Assembly: GCA_003056145.1 (NCBI GenBank)
Contig: LSNL01000003.1
Location: 4,345-68,344, forward strand
Source of the DNA: Parcubacteria group bacterium M10-OD1-1
GTDB lineage: Bacteria; Patescibacteriota; Minisyncoccia; Moranbacterales; UBA2206
DNA: 64,000 nucleotides
Direction of reading: 5' to 3'
This document shows positions 4,295 through 39,447 of the stretch, one piece after another (positions within the stretch are counted from its first letter, which is position 1; every line of letters starts with the position of its first letter). The notes beneath the pieces were generated by a model that was given only the letters and a program-made list of their open reading frames with translations, had not been told where the DNA came from and ran no database searches. Position numbers and translations under genes: made by a program.

Positions 4295-4346
4295 AATTTT
4301 TTTAAATACTTAATAAATAATAAAGGAAGTGAGGAAAGAAAATTGT

Positions 4347-4859
4347 TTAGCTAGTTTTATTGGTAGCAATGGCTTTTTTAATGGCTTCTTTTTCTTCTTC
4401 TGTTAATGGATGTTTTTCTGATTGACCATTGATAATCTCCTTGGAATAAATTCTTGCTCCTTCTCTAGTGAAAAGAGAAGAAAGTGTTATTCCATCATTT
4501 TTGCCATTTAGTAGAGCGATTGAGAAGCTTTGGTTACCTCCTACATCCTTAAAAGGATTAAATCTTACTTGTCCAATTTTATGAAAACTTTTAAAAGCTA
4601 AATTATTGATTTGATTGGAAATATTATATAATTCTTGAATATCTTTATCTAATAATTGAAGAGACTTCGCTTGACTTAATAAAAGTTCTTCTAAGTTTTT
4701 AACTTTTTTTCCAGCAAATAAAATTGTCTTCTCTTTTTTAATAATTTGAAACTGAAGATAAAAAAATATATTCCAAGCTAAAAGTATTAAAAACAGAATT
4801 ATAAAAAAAACTAAAATTATTAGTAGATTATTTTGAATTAAGTTCTCCAAAGAAATCAT
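4347..4859 (-). CDS. hypothetical membrane-anchored protein (DUF4446-like)
   Basis: 170 aa. N-terminal transmembrane helix, coiled-coil middle and conserved C-terminal region. The family call is from memory and not verified. Confidence 0.4.
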   Translation of the reverse strand: MISLENLIQNNLLIILVFFIILFLILLAWNIFFYLQFQIIKKEKTILFAGKKVKNLEELLLSQAKSLQLLDKDIQELYNISNQINNLAFKSFHKIGQVRFNPFKDVGGNQSFSIALLNGKNDGITLSSLFTREGARIYSKEIINGQSEKHPLTEEEKEAIKKAIATNKTS

Positions 4860-5171
4860 AGTATTTACTAGCTTAATTTAGATATAAGACTAATTTTAGG
4901 CTAGCATTTATATTTCCTTATGTAAAGCTAAAAGAATTATAATTTGATTAATAATTAAATTTATAAATTCAGAATATTTAAACTACTATTTAAGGGTTGC
5001 ACTAATGCTTTATGCAAGTCAAATTCAAAAGAGTAAGCTATGTACAGAAGAATAGGGCATACAAATGATAAATAAAAGTCTGTCTTACGTTTAAGACGGG
5101 CTTTTATTATTGTGGGCGGTGTCGCCTGCTATCTACTTGACAGATATGAATAAATATGCTAGGATGTACTG

Positions 5172-5335
5172 AATAACAAATAAGTTATTTTTAAAACAAA
5201 CAAATAAATAAATTCTTTGAGGAGAGAGTTACAAACAACGAAAGCTTTATAGCGGTTGTTGTTTAAAGAAAACAGTTAAATGTTTTTCTCTCTTCAGGGA
5301 AGAAAGCATTTAACTGTTTTTTTTTATTTTAAAAA
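5172..5335 (+). ncRNA. candidate small RNA with sigma70-like promoter and intrinsic terminator
   Basis: TTGACA (5137-5142), 17 nt, TAGGAT (5160-5165). Perfect 12-bp terminator stem aacagttaaatg/catttaactgtt (5271-5282 / 5307-5318) followed by T-run 5319-5335. No ORF lies between them. Confidence 0.4.
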
Positions 5336-5439
5336 TATGAAAGACAGATTTTGTTGAAAGAATGATGCAGATGAAATGTGCTTGTTGACACAACTTAAAA
5401 TGATTAAAAGTTGTTAATCCAAGTTTTTATCTTCATCAT

Positions 5440-6640
5440 TCTCTCAATAAAGAGGAGAGAGAAGCTGTTCTTTATATCGAAATAAAATGCTGAAAATATA
5501 TACAAGACCTGCAAGCCTTGTCACTGTGTTGGATAGGTCGCCTTTCGACGGAAACCGATTGCCAATGGCACATTTTACAAATCGTTTTCGTAAGGAAATC
5601 GACTGGGAGTGAAGACTTGAACTATCTTCGCTTTCAGAAATTTCCTTATGAGCGCCTTGTTGTTTAACTCGCTGTGAGTACAACAAGACAATCTAGAGGA
5701 AAATGCTCTTTGAAAAAAAACAAAATCATCATAGGAAGCTATCACGATGGTTTTGTAAACAAAATTGGTACTTGGCAGATAGTCTGTTTGGTTACCGAAA
5801 AAATCAGGGCTAACAAATGCCCCCTTGCCGACATTTTCATGGATGTCGTGATAGCCGAGGTTTCCTAAGGAGGAAATATCATGAATCAAAGAAATACTGG
5901 GAAGGAAGTAGTGTCCTTCCTCTGGAAGGAAGAAGGACTTGATGCGATTTTTTCCGGTGTGTCGTTTAACGACACACCGGACGGCAACGTTTGCACCTTT
6001 CTTTTTAGAAAGCAAGGTGTGAACGACGTACCGATATATTATCGGTACGAAATATTTGAACGACGCGACAGGCGTCGTTCAAAAGGACTGATTTTGACAT
6101 TACTCTTTACGAGTAATGTCAGGTCTCGGGTTGAATGCGTTTCCTTTCTAAAATTTTTAGAAAGGAATGGCCTACTCATCAGAAGGGCTGATGGCCCTGC
6201 TGATGAGTACTATGCCGACCCAAGGTTTATCACCTGTCCGCGCTTTGTGCGGATAAGTGATAAAATGTCTTTGCATTCAGAATTGTTGACCCTGACAAAT
6301 GGGGAAACAATTCTAGTAGAAATCTGGGCTCACTACCCAGAATACGAAGATGAAAATGAAGGAGACTTCCGTATAAAAAACATATGCTGGTTCCCAAAGG
6401 GGCACCATAGTTTTGATACGGAGGAAAATCCTGTAATATTCGCAGGTTTCCTGCGAATATGCCAAAACGGTAATACCGTCTTTGTAGACGGTATTTATTT
6501 CAATAACCGTGGAGGGCGCCACGGTATAATCGAAGAAGCAATTGACACACCAACGGCTACCGAGTAACCCTCGGCTAGTCGACAAACGTCGAGAGGTCGA
6601 CACTAAACAAACCCCCGAGCGACGGTAAGACGCGTTCATG
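5440..6640 (+). ncRNA. hairpin-dense tract of unknown function, candidate large structured RNA or hairpin array. The strand is uncertain; plus is suggested by the downstream plus-strand terminator.
   Basis: At least 25 local inverted repeats, many perfect 9-13 bp with 3-7 nt loops. Examples are 5955-5981 (11 bp), 6027-6049 (10 bp), 6057-6081 (10 bp), 6095-6121 (11 bp), 6141-6167 (12-13 bp), 6436-6460 (11 bp), 5656-5690 (8 bp) and 5832-5851 (6 bp). GC is higher than the flanks. The chance expectation for perfect 9+ bp hairpins in about 1 kb is far below one. Confidence 0.45.
5881..6567 (+). CDS. doubtful ORF (228 aa) overlapping the hairpin-dense tract; probably not a real protein gene
   Basis: Long ORF with an apparent SD aaggagg, but that SD is itself the hairpin tttcct-aagg-aggaaa. 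The ORF is saturated with perfect hairpins, its composition is rich in F and R, and overlapping ORFs occur on both strands, consistent with stop-codon depletion in GC-richer DNA. Confidence 0.2.
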   Translation: MNQRNTGKEVVSFLWKEEGLDAIFSGVSFNDTPDGNVCTFLFRKQGVNDVPIYYRYEIFERRDRRRSKGLILTLLFTSNVRSRVECVSFLKFLERNGLLIRRADGPADEYYADPRFITCPRFVRISDKMSLHSELLTLTNGETILVEIWAHYPEYEDENEGDFRIKNICWFPKGHHSFDTEENPVIFAGFLRICQNGNTVFVDGIYFNNRGGRHGIIEEAIDTPTATE

Positions 6641-6694
6641 AAATAAAATTATCTTGGTGTGAGTCCACCTAAAAACTCACTGCAGAAAGTACTA

Positions 6695-6739
6695 GGGGAT
6701 GAGCTTTCTGTAAGTTCAAGTTCAATCATCCCCTTTTTT
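6695..6739 (+). terminator. intrinsic terminator-like hairpin
   Basis: Stem ggggatga (6695-6702) / tcatcccc (6726-6733) with a 23-nt loop, followed by tttttt (6734-6739). Confidence 0.4.
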
Positions 6740-6999
6740 CCGAAATCATCAGTTTGTTAAAAATTGGTGGTTTCAGAGAAAAGATGCTCTTTGAAAAAAA
6801 TCTACAATACCGCAAATTGGTTGTGAATATTTGAATGTGGGATTGTTTAATTGACAACTAATTTGCAGTATTGTAGAAAAAATCCAAAGCCGGCAGGGTG
6901 TCGGTGGAGGGTAAATATTAATTTGTCTGATGCAATAATGCTGAGGACAACGGCGATTTTTCGCCCCCTAACTCCGGGGCTCGGAGTGGAGGAAGTAAG

Positions 7000-7644
7000 A
7001 TGTCCAATCAAGTGATAACTTTTGATAAAGTTGTGTCTGAGGTGGTTGCCAGCAAGGCAATTAAAAGAAATAAATATAACATCTGCCGCACCTGGCATGG
7101 ATGGATATCGAAAGACGTCCTACATATTACTAGTAGCTCCGGGGCTCGGCGGCGGAAAATTTGGCATTTCCCTATTATAAGGAATGCTGGAAAGGAGATG
7201 TTTTTTAAAAACACGACGGTAACTGCTGATTGCTGGACAGTTATTCCGGCAAAACAAGAAAAAGATCCTTATGGGAGGATTTTGAGACAGTGTAAACAAT
7301 CAAAAAAATTTCTCCACAGACATCAGCCTGGAGAAGTTGTCTATCTCAAAGGGAGATGGGCATATCTTCACTGTCATGTCCCGGGAGAGTCATCGTTTTA
7401 TGTTTCGTTCGATTCGGATGAGACGATCTTCGAAGGGCCCCTGATAAATGTTCCTGGGGGGCATTTTCAATATCAGGATTGGGAAGTGACGCTGTCCAAG
7501 TCCACTTGGGCAGTTGTCAGAAAGGCGCATGCCGATTCAAACGGTCGCGTGCGTAACTTTATCGAGGCTCTCCATATTTGGGGAGAGCCGGATATAGAAG
7601 AGGTTGCCTCCGCTGTGAGGAGAGGAACATTTGGGAGGAGTTAA
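7000..7644 (+). CDS. hypothetical protein (214 aa), uncertain, within the GC-rich insert
   Basis: ATG preceded by ggaggaag SD at -7 and a hairpin actccg-gggct-cggagt. Fewer perfect hairpins than the upstream tract, and a terminator-like hairpin downstream. Composition is W/H-rich and random-like, and I recognise no family. Confidence 0.3.
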   Translation: MSNQVITFDKVVSEVVASKAIKRNKYNICRTWHGWISKDVLHITSSSGARRRKIWHFPIIRNAGKEMFFKNTTVTADCWTVIPAKQEKDPYGRILRQCKQSKKFLHRHQPGEVVYLKGRWAYLHCHVPGESSFYVSFDSDETIFEGPLINVPGGHFQYQDWEVTLSKSTWAVVRKAHADSNGRVRNFIEALHIWGEPDIEEVASAVRRGTFGRS

Positions 7645-7659
7645 AAAGCGGACTTTTGT

Positions 7660-7700
7660 GCAGGATTGATGATTAGTTCTCATTCAATCCTGCCTATTAT
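7660..7700 (+). terminator. terminator-like hairpin downstream of ORF 7000-7644
   Basis: Stem gcaggattga (7660-7669) / tcaatcctgc (7684-7693). The downstream U-tract is weak. Confidence 0.3.
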
Positions 7701-8227
7701 TGGGATTTTAATTTCTTAATTTAAATTGAAATTCCATAATGGGAAATTGTTTATATAAATATAAACAATACATACAAAATATCTCGGTAATGTGAGGTGT
7801 TTTGAGTGAAATGAGATTTGATTTGTAAAACTTTTCGTCTTTGTAATTTTACGAGGACAAGAAACTCTCTCCTCGAGATTTTATGGATTAAATTTCTTAC
7901 TAAACATTTACTCAAACATCTCATATTGTTGAGATAAAAACATCACCTTTAACACAATAGCTTTGGCTTAGTGGTAATGTAGTCTATCGTTGTTGAAGGT
8001 TTTTTTTGTTTCTATGGAATCGGGAATTATTACAGAAGCAGTGACTGCAAAAACAGTGCGCGCTTTATATATAAAGAAAGTTCAAATATCGTTCAAAAGG
8101 TATCGCTATCTTTGAATTTTTGCGTTTTTGGTAGAATTTTGAGTGGGGCTTTGCTCCGCGCAAAGTGCGACCGTGTCTCGTATACACAGGAAGAAATGAA
8201 AATCCCCCAAAACGCTGAAATTGTAAT

Positions 8228-8317
8228 TGGCGGAGGCGGGAGGATTCGAACCTCCGATACCGGTTAAGGTATAACGCTTTTCGAGAGCGCCCTATTCAAC
8301 CGCTCTAGCACGCCTCC
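8228..8317 (-). tRNA. tRNA-Ser (anticodon CGA), type II with long variable arm
   Basis: The reverse complement reads GGAGGCG...CTAG/D-loop...anticodon stem GCGCT/AGCGT with loop CTCGAAA (anticodon CGA)...long variable arm...GGAGG-TTCGAAT-CCTCC...CGCCTCC-G-CCA. The CCA is encoded. Confidence 0.8.
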
Positions 8318-8467
8318 TTTTCTCTCTTTTTAGTATCCTTGATTTTTATCTTTTTGGCAATAAGAAAAAGATGAAATCTAATTACAAATAAAAATAATTT
8401 TTAAGTTGTTGCTTTTAGAAATTTGTTGTAAAATATAAAAGTAAAATAAAAACAAATAAAAACAACG

Positions 8468-9049
8468 ATGTTAGAACAGGAGGAAAAATCAATTCATCAA
8501 TCTTTAGGAGTAGCTAACTCTTTTAAGTTTTTAAGTCCTCAAAAAATAGTTGATCAAATTGAGGTTAATCCAGGAATGAAAATAGCTCATTTTGGTTGCT
8601 CTACTGGTTACTTTACTTTTCTATTAGCTCAAAGAGTTGGAGGTAGTGGTCAGGTTTATGCTCTAGATATTATATCTTCTAAACTAGAAATTTTAAAGAG
8701 CCAGATTAAATTACAAGGAATTAGAAACATTGCAATAAAAAGAGTGAGTTTAGAAAATAAGAATGGTTCTGGCTTGGAGAATGAAAGTATGGATTGGGTA
8801 ATAATGGTTAATATGTTATATCAAAATAATCAAAAGAATAAAATCATCAAAGAAGCAGAGAGAGTCTTAAAACCTGGTGGAAAAATTCTTTTAATAGACT
8901 GGGAAACAGGAGACGATAGAATTGGACCAAAAAAACTTTCACGAATTTCTAAAGGAGATTTAATTAAAATAGTCAGAAGATACAGTTTAGGAATTAAAAA
9001 AGAAATTGAAGTTGGAAATTTTCATTTTGGACTAATACTAGCCAAATAA
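8468..9049 (+). CDS. class I SAM-dependent methyltransferase
   Basis: 193 aa. Motif I-like GCSTGYFT and VYALDI, and the post-I region KPGGKILLIDW, which is the methyltransferase type 11 fold. Confidence 0.65.
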   Translation: MLEQEEKSIHQSLGVANSFKFLSPQKIVDQIEVNPGMKIAHFGCSTGYFTFLLAQRVGGSGQVYALDIISSKLEILKSQIKLQGIRNIAIKRVSLENKNGSGLENESMDWVIMVNMLYQNNQKNKIIKEAERVLKPGGKILLIDWETGDDRIGPKKLSRISKGDLIKIVRRYSLGIKKEIEVGNFHFGLILAK

Positions 9050-22498: not shown

Positions 22499-23347
22499 AT
22501 GAAAAAAGAATTGTTACTGGTGTGTCTGGTGTGTTGTCTAATGGTTTTTCCAAGTCAAAGTTTTGCTGATTCGTCAGGCGTTGGAATCGCTGGCGCTCAG
22601 GCTGTTATTAACGGAGGGGATGTCCAGGTGAATCCTGGGCAAGTTGTGTCTCCAAGTGCGAATGCGAATCTGAGTATCGATTCGCATTCGAAAGTGAGCA
22701 ATCGTAATTTTTTGCAGACGGGATATCCAGCGGCCCCAGCGCCGATGACTTACTTTGGCCCCTGGAAAAAGGGACTACCGTATAATGTAATCCAACTTGC
22801 AGTTGGATCGGTATGGAAGTGGGCAGGAATGAGGAAGGTATCTTCCAGTAGTGCTAAAGCACTGTTAGAAGATATCCAACATCCATTTCCGCCGACGGCA
22901 GAAATAAAAGTTGTCTCCCCTGAGAAAGGGGAGGGAACCTTTGTCGGCAATATTGTTGTCCTAGTTGACAGCAATCAAGCGAGCTTTAACGCTCGCAACA
23001 TAGCTCTAAAAGTAGCCATGAAGGCTGGTGCCGACCAGCTGGAAATCTATTCCAACAATTACATTCAGAAGCCAACTAGCTCTGGTTGGCATTTCGGTTT
23101 TGGCGGTGGTGCCTCGGGCATCATCGGCAATGATAGCACATCAATTGCAGGCTCAGGAGGAACCGGATTTGGATCCTCCAGCCTTCATTTGGCGAGCCTT
23201 CCATTTATTAAGGCCCGTCTTTGGAGGTCAGCTACTGCAGTTGATTTGGCCAGCGTCAGCGAAGACGAAAGCTATGCACCGGCGGTCAAAGCCAAATCTT
23301 CTAATGAGGATTGGCATATAAAAGACTTAAGTAATTTTGACAATTAA
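22499..23347 (+). CDS. secreted protein of unknown function (GC-rich, likely horizontally acquired)
   Basis: 282 aa. Signal peptide MKKELLLVCLVCCLMVFPSQSFA, SD ggagag upstream, and a Gly-rich C-region. Composition contrasts strongly with the flanking AT-rich genes. No family recognised. Confidence 0.5.
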   Translation: MKKELLLVCLVCCLMVFPSQSFADSSGVGIAGAQAVINGGDVQVNPGQVVSPSANANLSIDSHSKVSNRNFLQTGYPAAPAPMTYFGPWKKGLPYNVIQLAVGSVWKWAGMRKVSSSSAKALLEDIQHPFPPTAEIKVVSPEKGEGTFVGNIVVLVDSNQASFNARNIALKVAMKAGADQLEIYSNNYIQKPTSSGWHFGFGGGASGIIGNDSTSIAGSGGTGFGSSSLHLASLPFIKARLWRSATAVDLASVSEDESYAPAVKAKSSNEDWHIKDLSNFDN

Positions 23348-23472
23348 CAAAAAAGGAGGTGATTTTCAGAATTTTCAGTAAGTAACACGAGTAACATAAC
23401 ATTCTCCATTCCTAGTTGGGATGGAGGTAATTATGGGACATTCCCGTGTCCCGAACAAAAAAGGAGAAAGTC

Positions 23473-23901
23473 ATGAAAAAGATGTTATCAAAAATGGCAG
23501 TATCGATGTCAATTATTGCCCTGATTATGGTTGCCATCCCGGCTCTTGCCCAATCAGGAGGAAGTGTGGAGGGAGGTAATTCGTCCTGGCTGTCAGGCTT
23601 TGATAATGGCATTACCCACATCTCGGCCAATCAACGATCCTGGCAACAGACAGTTATCCAGGTACCCGGTCAAACATTTAACGCCGTTTCAAACAGCAAC
23701 ACCGGGTTCCAGCTGAATGCTGCCGATGGCGTAGCCGCCGCCGAAACAACTACAGATATAGGTTTTTACACTAATTCTAGTGGAAACCTGGGAGCCTTTT
23801 CTGATGCCAATGTGGCATCGATCGCTGCAGGTAACGCCATGAGCATTACCTGGGCAGCCTCAAATTCTTCCCTGAGCCAATATGGTGGCGGGGAGCGATA
23901 G
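23473..23901 (+). CDS. secreted protein of unknown function (GC-rich)
   Basis: Start set at ATG 23473 (MKKMLSKMAVSMSIIALIMVAIPALA signal peptide) with SD aaaggag 7 nt upstream. The listed ORF begins at an upstream GTG. A strong terminator follows. Confidence 0.45.
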   Translation: MKKMLSKMAVSMSIIALIMVAIPALAQSGGSVEGGNSSWLSGFDNGITHISANQRSWQQTVIQVPGQTFNAVSNSNTGFQLNAADGVAAAETTTDIGFYTNSSGNLGAFSDANVASIAAGNAMSITWAASNSSLSQYGGGER

Positions 23902-38952: not shown

Positions 38953-39447
38953 ATGAAGAAATTTACCATGATTTCAGCTATAGTTGTGATGAGTTGTTTT
39001 ATTGGTCTTATGGGTTGCAGGAGATTCACTCAACCAAAGGTCAGCAAGAAAATGGAAAGGGAGATGATCTCTAGCATATACATGGCTCCACCGTTAGTGT
39101 GGGTGGGATTACCTACTTCATGGATGGGGGGAATGGGAGGAGAATACTGTAAAATAGTTGAGCTCAATGCGTTCAGCTATGAAGTAGGGAAATCTCTAAA
39201 AGAAACTAACGGGGGCAAGCTCCCTGAGATGCTGGGCGCGCAATTCGAGAACGCATGGCCAGTAACTGCCCATGCGACTGGGATAGCGGGAGTCCAATGG
39301 CTCCCAAGAGGGGAAGGGAAGTTTAGTTATGTTGGAGGCAACAGTGGGAAACGATGGGTAAAAAAGAAGTTTAGTGGGGAGTGTCAGTTTATGCTGTATC
39401 ATGATATTTATGGCAAATGGAGGCTGGTACGCAACTGGCAGAATTAG
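38953..39447 (+). CDS. lipoprotein of unknown function (GC-rich insert)
   Basis: 164 aa. SD aggaggag, signal peptide plus lipobox LMGC, and GC-rich relative to recA and ndk. Confidence 0.5.
   Translation: MKKFTMISAIVVMSCFIGLMGCRRFTQPKVSKKMEREMISSIYMAPPLVWVGLPTSWMGGMGGEYCKIVELNAFSYEVGKSLKETNGGKLPEMLGAQFENAWPVTAHATGIAGVQWLPRGEGKFSYVGGNSGKRWVKKKFSGECQFMLYHDIYGKWRLVRNWQN

Follow-up and report, generated by a model that had tools for sequence, protein, structure and literature searches.

A 17-nt sequence, ATGCTCTTTGAAAAAAA, occurs twice on the forward strand of a 64,000-nt stretch of contig LSNL01000003.1 (assembly GCA_003056145.1; Candidatus Moranbacteria/Moraniibacteriota, Patescibacteria, Candidate Phyla Radiation (CPR)), at positions 5703–5719 and 6784–6800. 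We refer to this whole stretch as the window. The two copies are probably recombination junctions, one at each end of a self-contained cassette of 1,081 bp with a single gene. The cassette carries an orphan open reading frame (ORF1) and sits upstream of a resident unit built around a second one (ORF2). A crossover inside the 17–20 bp of identity relates the occupied state of the window to the empty state of a second genome, GCA_003056095.1, which keeps one chimeric copy of the repeat.

The repeat copies are the ends of a presence/absence segment

The empty state is found on contig LSNQ01000009.1 of GCA_003056095.1 (L014), which encodes an ORF2 that is 100% identical to that of the window. This contig aligns to window positions 4301–5719 at 99.5% and to 6775–8600 at 99.7%, and the blocks share 25 nt, at a single motif copy, while exactly 1,081 bp of the window between them is missing. 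Read base by base, the empty junction (...CTAGAGGAAAATGCTCTTTGAAAAAAATCTACAATACC...) is composed of the left flank of copy 1 (...CAATCTAGAGGAAA), one motif, and the right flank of copy 2 (TCTACAATACC...). The repeat copies are therefore the exact limits of a segment that is present in one genome and absent from the other, and whose only gene is ORF1. Permutation tests on the leader sequences to either side of the motif gave no significant similarity (p ≥ 0.25); identity thus hardly extends beyond the repeat, as is classical for a recombination junction.

All of the sequences compared are metagenome assemblies. The occupied left junction is reproduced at 100% identity in L001–L003 and the right junction in L005–L007, which are independent assemblies of other samples. 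Segment 6716–6756 is covered by the window alone, and no retrieved contig spans it. As the k-mers usual in assemblers are longer than the 17 nt of the exact repeat, a repeat-collapse artefact in the cassette-free contig is unlikely. Contigs from several independent samples and assemblers break at 5608, ~6613, 6757 and 7684, mostly at strong hairpins, and ORF1 and ORF2 often lie on separate contigs of ~1 kb; strain bubbles, additional structural variants or a loss of coverage at hairpins might account for these recurrent breaks.

The repeat itself behaves largely as the original prediction had described it. The near-identical extended context that it reported for the two copies corresponds to a repeat with 19/20 identity (5700–5719 versus 6781–6800; spacing 1081 nt), preceded by a looser, imperfect resemblance (AGAGGAAA- versus AGAGAAAAG). 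Two copies indeed exceed the chance expectation: in dinucleotide shuffles the mean number of matches at ≤2 mismatches is 0.21, with 3 of 100 shuffles reaching 2, and exact duplicates would be rarer still. An A-run contributes to the 17-mer, and the concern that the motif might be a scattered low-complexity artefact can be set aside, since no further match exists on either strand of the window with up to 3 mismatches allowed. The copies also lie, as had been proposed, at similar distances upstream of a Shine-Dalgarno sequence (SD) and ATG, 178 nt (ATG at 5881) and 216 nt (ATG at 7000), and both SDs are good. The suggestion that the copies mark the ends of a duplicated module survives in half: module ends they are, with exact 1,081-bp boundaries, whereas a tandem duplication of the module is ruled out, as ORF1 and ORF2 are unrelated and their leaders and flanks cannot be aligned outside the repeat.

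The empty state is more likely to be a recent, precise loss in the lineage of the cassette-free contig than the ancestral condition, with the resident cassette being older. A 934-bp contig from another strain (L008) holds a 3.6%-diverged ORF1 allele at the same left junction, yet divergence between the window and the cassette-free genome is a mere 0.2–0.5%, and on these grounds parsimony would place the loss in the cassette-free genome. Repeated gain by site-specific insertion is a less probable alternative.

Anatomy of the cassette and its neighbour

The cassette (5720–6800) comprises a structured leader, an SD, the orphan ORF1, a terminator-like hairpin and one repeat copy, and it lies directly upstream of the analogous resident ORF2 unit, inside a GC-rich island. 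With its SD, 228-codon reading frame, and hairpin followed by a T-run, it looks autonomous from its sequence. The elements of both units, all on the + strand, are as follows.

5700–5719 (core 5703–5719): left direct-repeat copy and left cassette junction; homology to the cassette-free contig reaches 5719 and resumes at 6775
5720–5756 and 5765–5798: two stem-loops that open the ORF1 leader (fold of 5690–5885, z = −3.7)
5772–5777: −35-like TTGGCA, 25 nt before the box GAAAAAATC (5797–5805); a possible but unproven promoter, not called by the promoter scan
5881–6567: ORF1, 228 aa, orphan cargo gene; SD AAGGAGG at 5867–5873; perfect hairpins throughout
6695–6739: terminator-like hairpin GGGGATGA...TCATCCCC followed by TTTTTT, 3' of ORF1 (from fold and sequence)
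6735–6783: hairpin at the right end of the cassette, abutting the right repeat copy (from fold)
6781–6800 (core 6784–6800): right direct-repeat copy and right cassette junction, from the comparison with the cassette-free contig
6801–6877: long inverted repeat that opens the ORF2 leader; 28-nt arms, 89% complementary (z = −7.5)
6851–6856: TTGACA, then 17 nt and TAGAAA, overlapping the box GAAAAAATC (6876–6884); inside and after the inverted repeat of the ORF2 leader
7000–7644: ORF2, 214 aa, resident neighbour gene in both haplotypes; SD GGAGG at 6988–6992
7660–7701: terminator-like hairpin 3' of ORF2 (from fold)

Stem-loops begin directly after both motif copies, totalling 77–78 nt in each case, and stem-loops also precede both. 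By eye only, a TTGRCA-17-nnGAAA arrangement can be seen 50–52 nt downstream of the motif copies. No inverted pair links the ends of the module (5720–5760 to 6740–6783), which is thus without terminal inverted repeats.

A model for exchange and what weighs against it

By reciprocal recombination between the two copies the cassette would leave the chromosome as a circle of ~1.08 kb that retains one repeat copy, with a predicted junction reading ...TTTCAGAGAAAAGATGCTCTTTGAAAAAAAACAAAATCATC..., and the reverse step would be a Campbell-type integration of such a circle. Comparable exchanges take place between the promoter-early stem-loop (PeSL) motifs on either side of ORFans in T4-type phages, and between the attachment (att) cores of integrative elements. 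The enzyme could be a trans-acting site-specific recombinase or the host's own short-homology recombination.

Several observations speak against recombination junctions as the explanation of the repeat. Among the open reading frames of the 64 kb window, for which the 25 top families were listed, there is no integrase, resolvase or transposase, and neither a circular junction nor a second insertion site was seen in the sequences searched. The empty site is represented by one genome only, and the polarity rests on parsimony from the 934-bp L008 contig, which is not linked to a host backbone. The two leaders, moreover, share features: TTGRCA stands exactly 25 nt before GAAAAAATC in both, which hints at a common functional layout and at pre-existing boxes, and in a post hoc test a 9-mer matching at the same offset was reached by 25 of 5000 shuffles (p ~0.005). 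Finally, the motif starts with an ATG after the purine-rich AGAGGAAA and in every copy opens a short upstream open reading frame (uORF).

Could the repeat be a regulatory box?

On a rival reading the 17-mer would be a cis-regulatory element shared by two independently expressed orphan genes, such as a site upstream of a promoter or the beginning of a regulatory uORF (MLFEK...); the cassette-free contig would then reflect a RecA-independent slipped-strand deletion between the boxes, with the indel a by-product. We consider this explanation possible but unlikely. Besides the shared −35-like spacing and the uORFs, it can draw on the similar distances to SD and ATG, on the stem-loops of nearly equal total length directly after each copy, and on the parsimony argument, which favours loss. 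The uORFs encode MLFEKK... (36 aa), MLFEKN... (16 aa) and, in L008, MFFEKK..., such that the changes in that strain preserve M[LF]FEKK.

The distribution and conservation of the motif, however, argue against a widespread or tightly conserved box. Metagenome contigs and IMG/VR were searched with the pattern AGAG-N4-5-ATGCTCTTTGAAAAAAA. The metagenome contigs returned this locus and two chance matches inside unrelated coding sequence, and IMG/VR returned no match; with no further copy in the window either, a widespread box is improbable. The 17-mer is not recognisable in the leader of P0003, the only distant relative of ORF2, despite a 31-nt SD-proximal element that is 93.5% conserved there. The left copy of L008 is ATGTTCTTTGAGAAAAAAA; it differs at 2 of 17 positions, against ~4% divergence over the remainder of that leader, and the motif is therefore not under conspicuous constraint. 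A leader-peptide role of the uORF is possible but unlikely, judging from an SD spacing of ~3 nt versus 8 nt for ORF1 and ORF2 and from the L008 peptide, which is frame-shifted after residue 6.

Nor did the surroundings of the motif lend direct support to the original prediction of a regulatory box or of the 5' ends of two parallel transcription units. The promoter scan called no promoter-like site at either copy, the only Rfam matches over 4800–8400 (gathering score and E ≤ 10) were of microRNA type and at chance level, with no family matched, and the leaders of the two copies, whose alignment had been proposed as a check, show no significant similarity outside the repeat. Any regulatory function of the motif is putative.

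A target-site duplication left by transposase-type insertion of the ORF1 module would also yield direct repeats around the insert and a single copy at the empty site, but we find it very improbable. Typical transposase target-site duplications are 2–14 bp, and the repeat, at 17–20 bp, is far above that length; the module has no terminal inverted repeats and no transposase, ORF1 has no Pfam, PHROG or PADLOC match, and protein searches found no other copies of the module elsewhere. Least credible of all is an assembly or binning artefact, in which the cassette-free contig or the cassette-bearing window would be chimeric: all the data are metagenome assemblies that break repeatedly in the island and leave one segment to the window alone, but each occupied junction recurs without a mismatch in three independent assemblies, the exact repeat is shorter than usual k-mers, and the deletion ends exactly at the repeat, as it would after a genuine recombination event.

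ORF1 and ORF2 are orphan genes

ORF1 and ORF2 have no match in Pfam, PHROG or PADLOC, and AlphaFold2 models of them are unusable (predicted local distance difference test (pLDDT) scores of 32 and 36). A word-indexed search of 5.8 billion proteins returned a single relative of ORF1, at 95% identity, and exhaustive HMMER searching of 1.8 billion representatives contributed one more, weak match (E = 5.8e-5), a 728-aa metagenomic protein (P0004) with a tandemly repeated CIA30/CBM11-like domain. The match pairs ORF1 residues 183–227 (NPVIFAGFLRICQNGNTVFVDGIYFNNRGG; window 6183–6567) with the last strands of this beta-sandwich domain, which hints at a carbohydrate-binding-like fold for the ORF1 C-terminus. 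The L008 variant of ORF1 carries ~8 non-synonymous and ~7 synonymous changes together with in-frame deletions of 6 and 3 nt, a pattern expected of a translated gene under moderate constraint. The idea that ORF1 is a large structured non-coding RNA alone is rejected on the grounds of the strong SD, the 228 open codons and this variant pattern; the weak C-terminal match and the lack of an Rfam match at the locus are further evidence against it.

ORF2 belongs to a small family. Its N-terminal 87 aa are 53% identical in P0003 and its C-terminus is divergent. The P0003 gene comes from a different AT-rich organism and lies at a different locus, adjoining a holA-like gene and a tRNA; the next reading frame there encodes 119 aa and overlaps the end of the P0003 gene. 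The SD-proximal leader hairpin of ORF2, CCCTAACTCCGGGGCTCGGAGTGGAGGA (6963–6993), is the element conserved at 93.5% over 31 nt at the P0003 locus (L010 987–1017), and a second occurrence of its core, TAACTCCGGGGCTCGG, lies within the coding sequence of ORF2 (7134–7149, 94%). A GC-rich, hairpin-rich module of the ORF2 family is thus found at a different locus in another organism, and such modules therefore do move.

Hairpins saturate the coding sequences

The coding sequence of ORF1 folds at −299.7 kcal/mol compared with −178.7 for shuffles (z = −17.1), and it contains seven perfect hairpins with stems of 10–13 bp between 5953 and 6495, which exceeds the rest of the 64 kb combined. The same measure for ORF1 and the other sequences folded is as follows.

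ORF1: z = −17.1
P0003 gene (L010 1025–1663): z = −13.0
secreted-protein gene 22499–23185: z = −9.9
non-coding stretch 5168–5720: z = −8.2
ORF2: z = −6.0
AT-rich neighbour of the P0003 gene: z = −1.2
methyltransferase gene: z = +0.6

Tests for selection on the hairpins gave no clear signal. Substitutions in L008 fall at hairpin-paired positions in 9 of 15 cases (p = 0.33), which is not significant for an avoidance of stems, and the asymmetries in wobble pairs and between sense and antisense strands are equalled in control genes and so do not tell hairpins at the RNA level from those at the DNA level. Comparison of the ORF2 and P0003 hairpins yields 7 compensatory pairs, drawn from two independent lineages only and suggestive only. 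We found no description of such hairpin-saturated orphan genes in the literature, and they are a more surprising loose end than the cassette itself.

Further GC-rich (44–47%) orphan genes lie at 22499–23901 and 38953–39447, and their products carry signal peptides or a lipoprotein-type signal. Two of these genes are just downstream of tRNA-Pro and tRNA-Gly, and one follows recA. Across the window, these further genes and islands have no motif copy and no convincing flanking direct repeat.

A much broader proposal can be made from these features, namely that Moranbacteria chromosomes carry an undescribed class of mobile, GC-rich, hairpin-saturated orphan-gene cassettes: autonomous leader-ORF-terminator units that would move as small circles via a short leader repeat, with perfect stem-loops in the coding sequence (z of −6 to −17) as their functional hallmark. 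Such cassettes might be the chromosomal counterpart of the phage PeSL mini-circles, and the hairpins might, for example, stabilise the mRNA, present folded single-stranded DNA to a recombinase, or help to evade nucleases. We regard this proposal as speculative and doubt that it will hold in full.

Chromosomal setting

The window is AT-rich core chromosome (32% GC) with the gene order IF2, DUF4446, tRNA-Ser, methyltransferase, SBP and type IV secretion system pilins, a synteny on which the assignment to Candidatus Moranbacteria partly rests. The motif copies sit within a 3.4 kb stretch that runs from the DUF4446 gene (4347–4859, − strand) to tRNA-Ser(CGA) (8228–8317, − strand) and has a GC content of 42–45% versus 32% for the genome. 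There are no phage genes nearby, with 0 PHROG matches, and searches for viral relatives of the locus, IMG/VR included, found none.

Across 80 species of Moranbacteria and other CPR bacteria (L015–L094), the interval between the DUF4446 and methyltransferase genes ranges from ~0.15 to 4.5 kb, and in several species it holds groES-groEL or sigma-factor genes. Gene order at the site is therefore fluid over deeper time, even without cassettes. A conserved cassette hotspot across Moranbacteria is ruled out, as the 80 species hold ordinary genes there, with no relatives of ORF1 or ORF2 and no motif.

An imperfect 17-nt direct repeat (AAAATGCTGAAAATATA at 5484–5500 and AAAACGCTGAAATTGTA at 8209–8225) brackets the entire GC-rich island; 3 nt separate its right copy from the 3' end of tRNA-Ser, and each copy looks like the 17-mer motif with CTTT removed. 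This repeat is marginal, with 3 matches versus 0.96 expected, a number that 6 of 100 shuffles reach. The strongest promoter-like site of the region, a TG-extended TTGACA-17-TAGGAT, lies at 5137–5165, and ~100 nt after it there is a hairpin with 29-bp arms and a T-run (5265–5330). The element as a whole (5137–5330), which is conserved in the cassette-free contig and matches no Rfam family, could be a candidate small RNA of ~150 nt or an attenuated leader.

Comparison with known mobile elements

The closest parallel is offered by PeSL cassettes, which are known from T4-type phages (Arbiol et al. 2010, PMC2839356). In RB49 a PeSL stands on each side of ORFan192, and phi1 has a single chimeric PeSL in its place; recombination between the motifs accounts for such a deletion or insertion, and mini-circles were also detected (PMC2839356). 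Our locus likewise has an ORFan between two short motif copies with adjacent stem-loops, and the relative without the ORFan keeps one chimeric copy. PeSLs, however, are composite elements of roughly 50–70 bp with a demonstrated sigma-70 promoter and a terminator, and many occur per phage genome (PMC2839356), whereas here the identity extends over 17–20 bp, two copies exist in 64 kb, and the promoter is putative only. The locus also lies on a CPR chromosome beside core genes, with no phage relatives and no T4-like hyperplastic region.

A phage moron is one coding region equipped with a terminator and expression signals of its own; its composition is atypical, and the two genes that flank it are direct neighbours in a related genome (PMC4378225). 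For morons, the mechanism of their acquisition has been called "mysterious" (PMC4378225). The cassette shares with them the single reading frame between genes adjacent in the relative and a composition unlike its surroundings; its terminator-like hairpin with T-run and its putative promoter would be the counterparts of the signals of a moron. It differs in that it is not in a prophage and in that it has an explicit junction repeat, whereas morons are not defined by flanking direct repeats.

The direct repeat of 17–20 bp at both ends and the single copy at the empty site also recall att-flanked non-autonomous integrative elements, CIME-like, and the att cores of tyrosine recombinases, as do the weak dyad symmetry round the core (AGAG N7-8 CTCT) and the host island adjoining the 3' end of tRNA-Ser. 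Unlike in those elements, no recombinase gene was found in the cassette or among the 25 top families of the window, the neighbours are DUF4446, ORF2 and tRNA-Ser, and the junction falls outside the tRNA. Public collections yielded no further att site, whether occupied or empty.

Integron cassettes offer a further likeness in the promoter-proximal array of single orphan reading frames, one of them a strain-variable unit of ~1 kb. Here, by contrast, there is no attC; the boundaries GAAAAAAA|ACAAAATC and GAAAAAAA|TCTACAAT are without GTTRRRY cores, and the inverted repeat at 6801–6877 lies outside the cassette and lacks R''/R' cores. The same listing of families contains no intI, and each reading frame has its own SD, leader and terminator. 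Insertion sequences and transposons differ in all that was noted above, as the cassette has neither terminal inverted repeats nor a transposase and its repeat spans 17–20 bp.

We file the element as a moron/PeSL-like gene cassette that is bounded by direct repeats and lies in a CPR chromosome, but that belongs to neither class. Membership of the PeSLs and of the morons fails: there is no phage context, only two motif copies exist, and promoter activity is putative.

Implications

Very little is known of how accessory genes are gained and lost in the tiny genomes of CPR/Patescibacteria. As an instance of cassette-type gene flux in an uncultured CPR bacterium, the locus is clean and modestly interesting: a single orphan gene caught in both states, with base-exact junctions on a 17–20-bp repeat, makes a concrete and testable case of such flux. 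Hairpin-saturated coding sequences are unusual in themselves and might be relevant, in such organisms, to the stability of mRNA or to recombination that depends on DNA structure. If a circular intermediate or a dedicated recombinase were found, the logic of PeSLs and morons would extend from phages to streamlined bacterial chromosomes.

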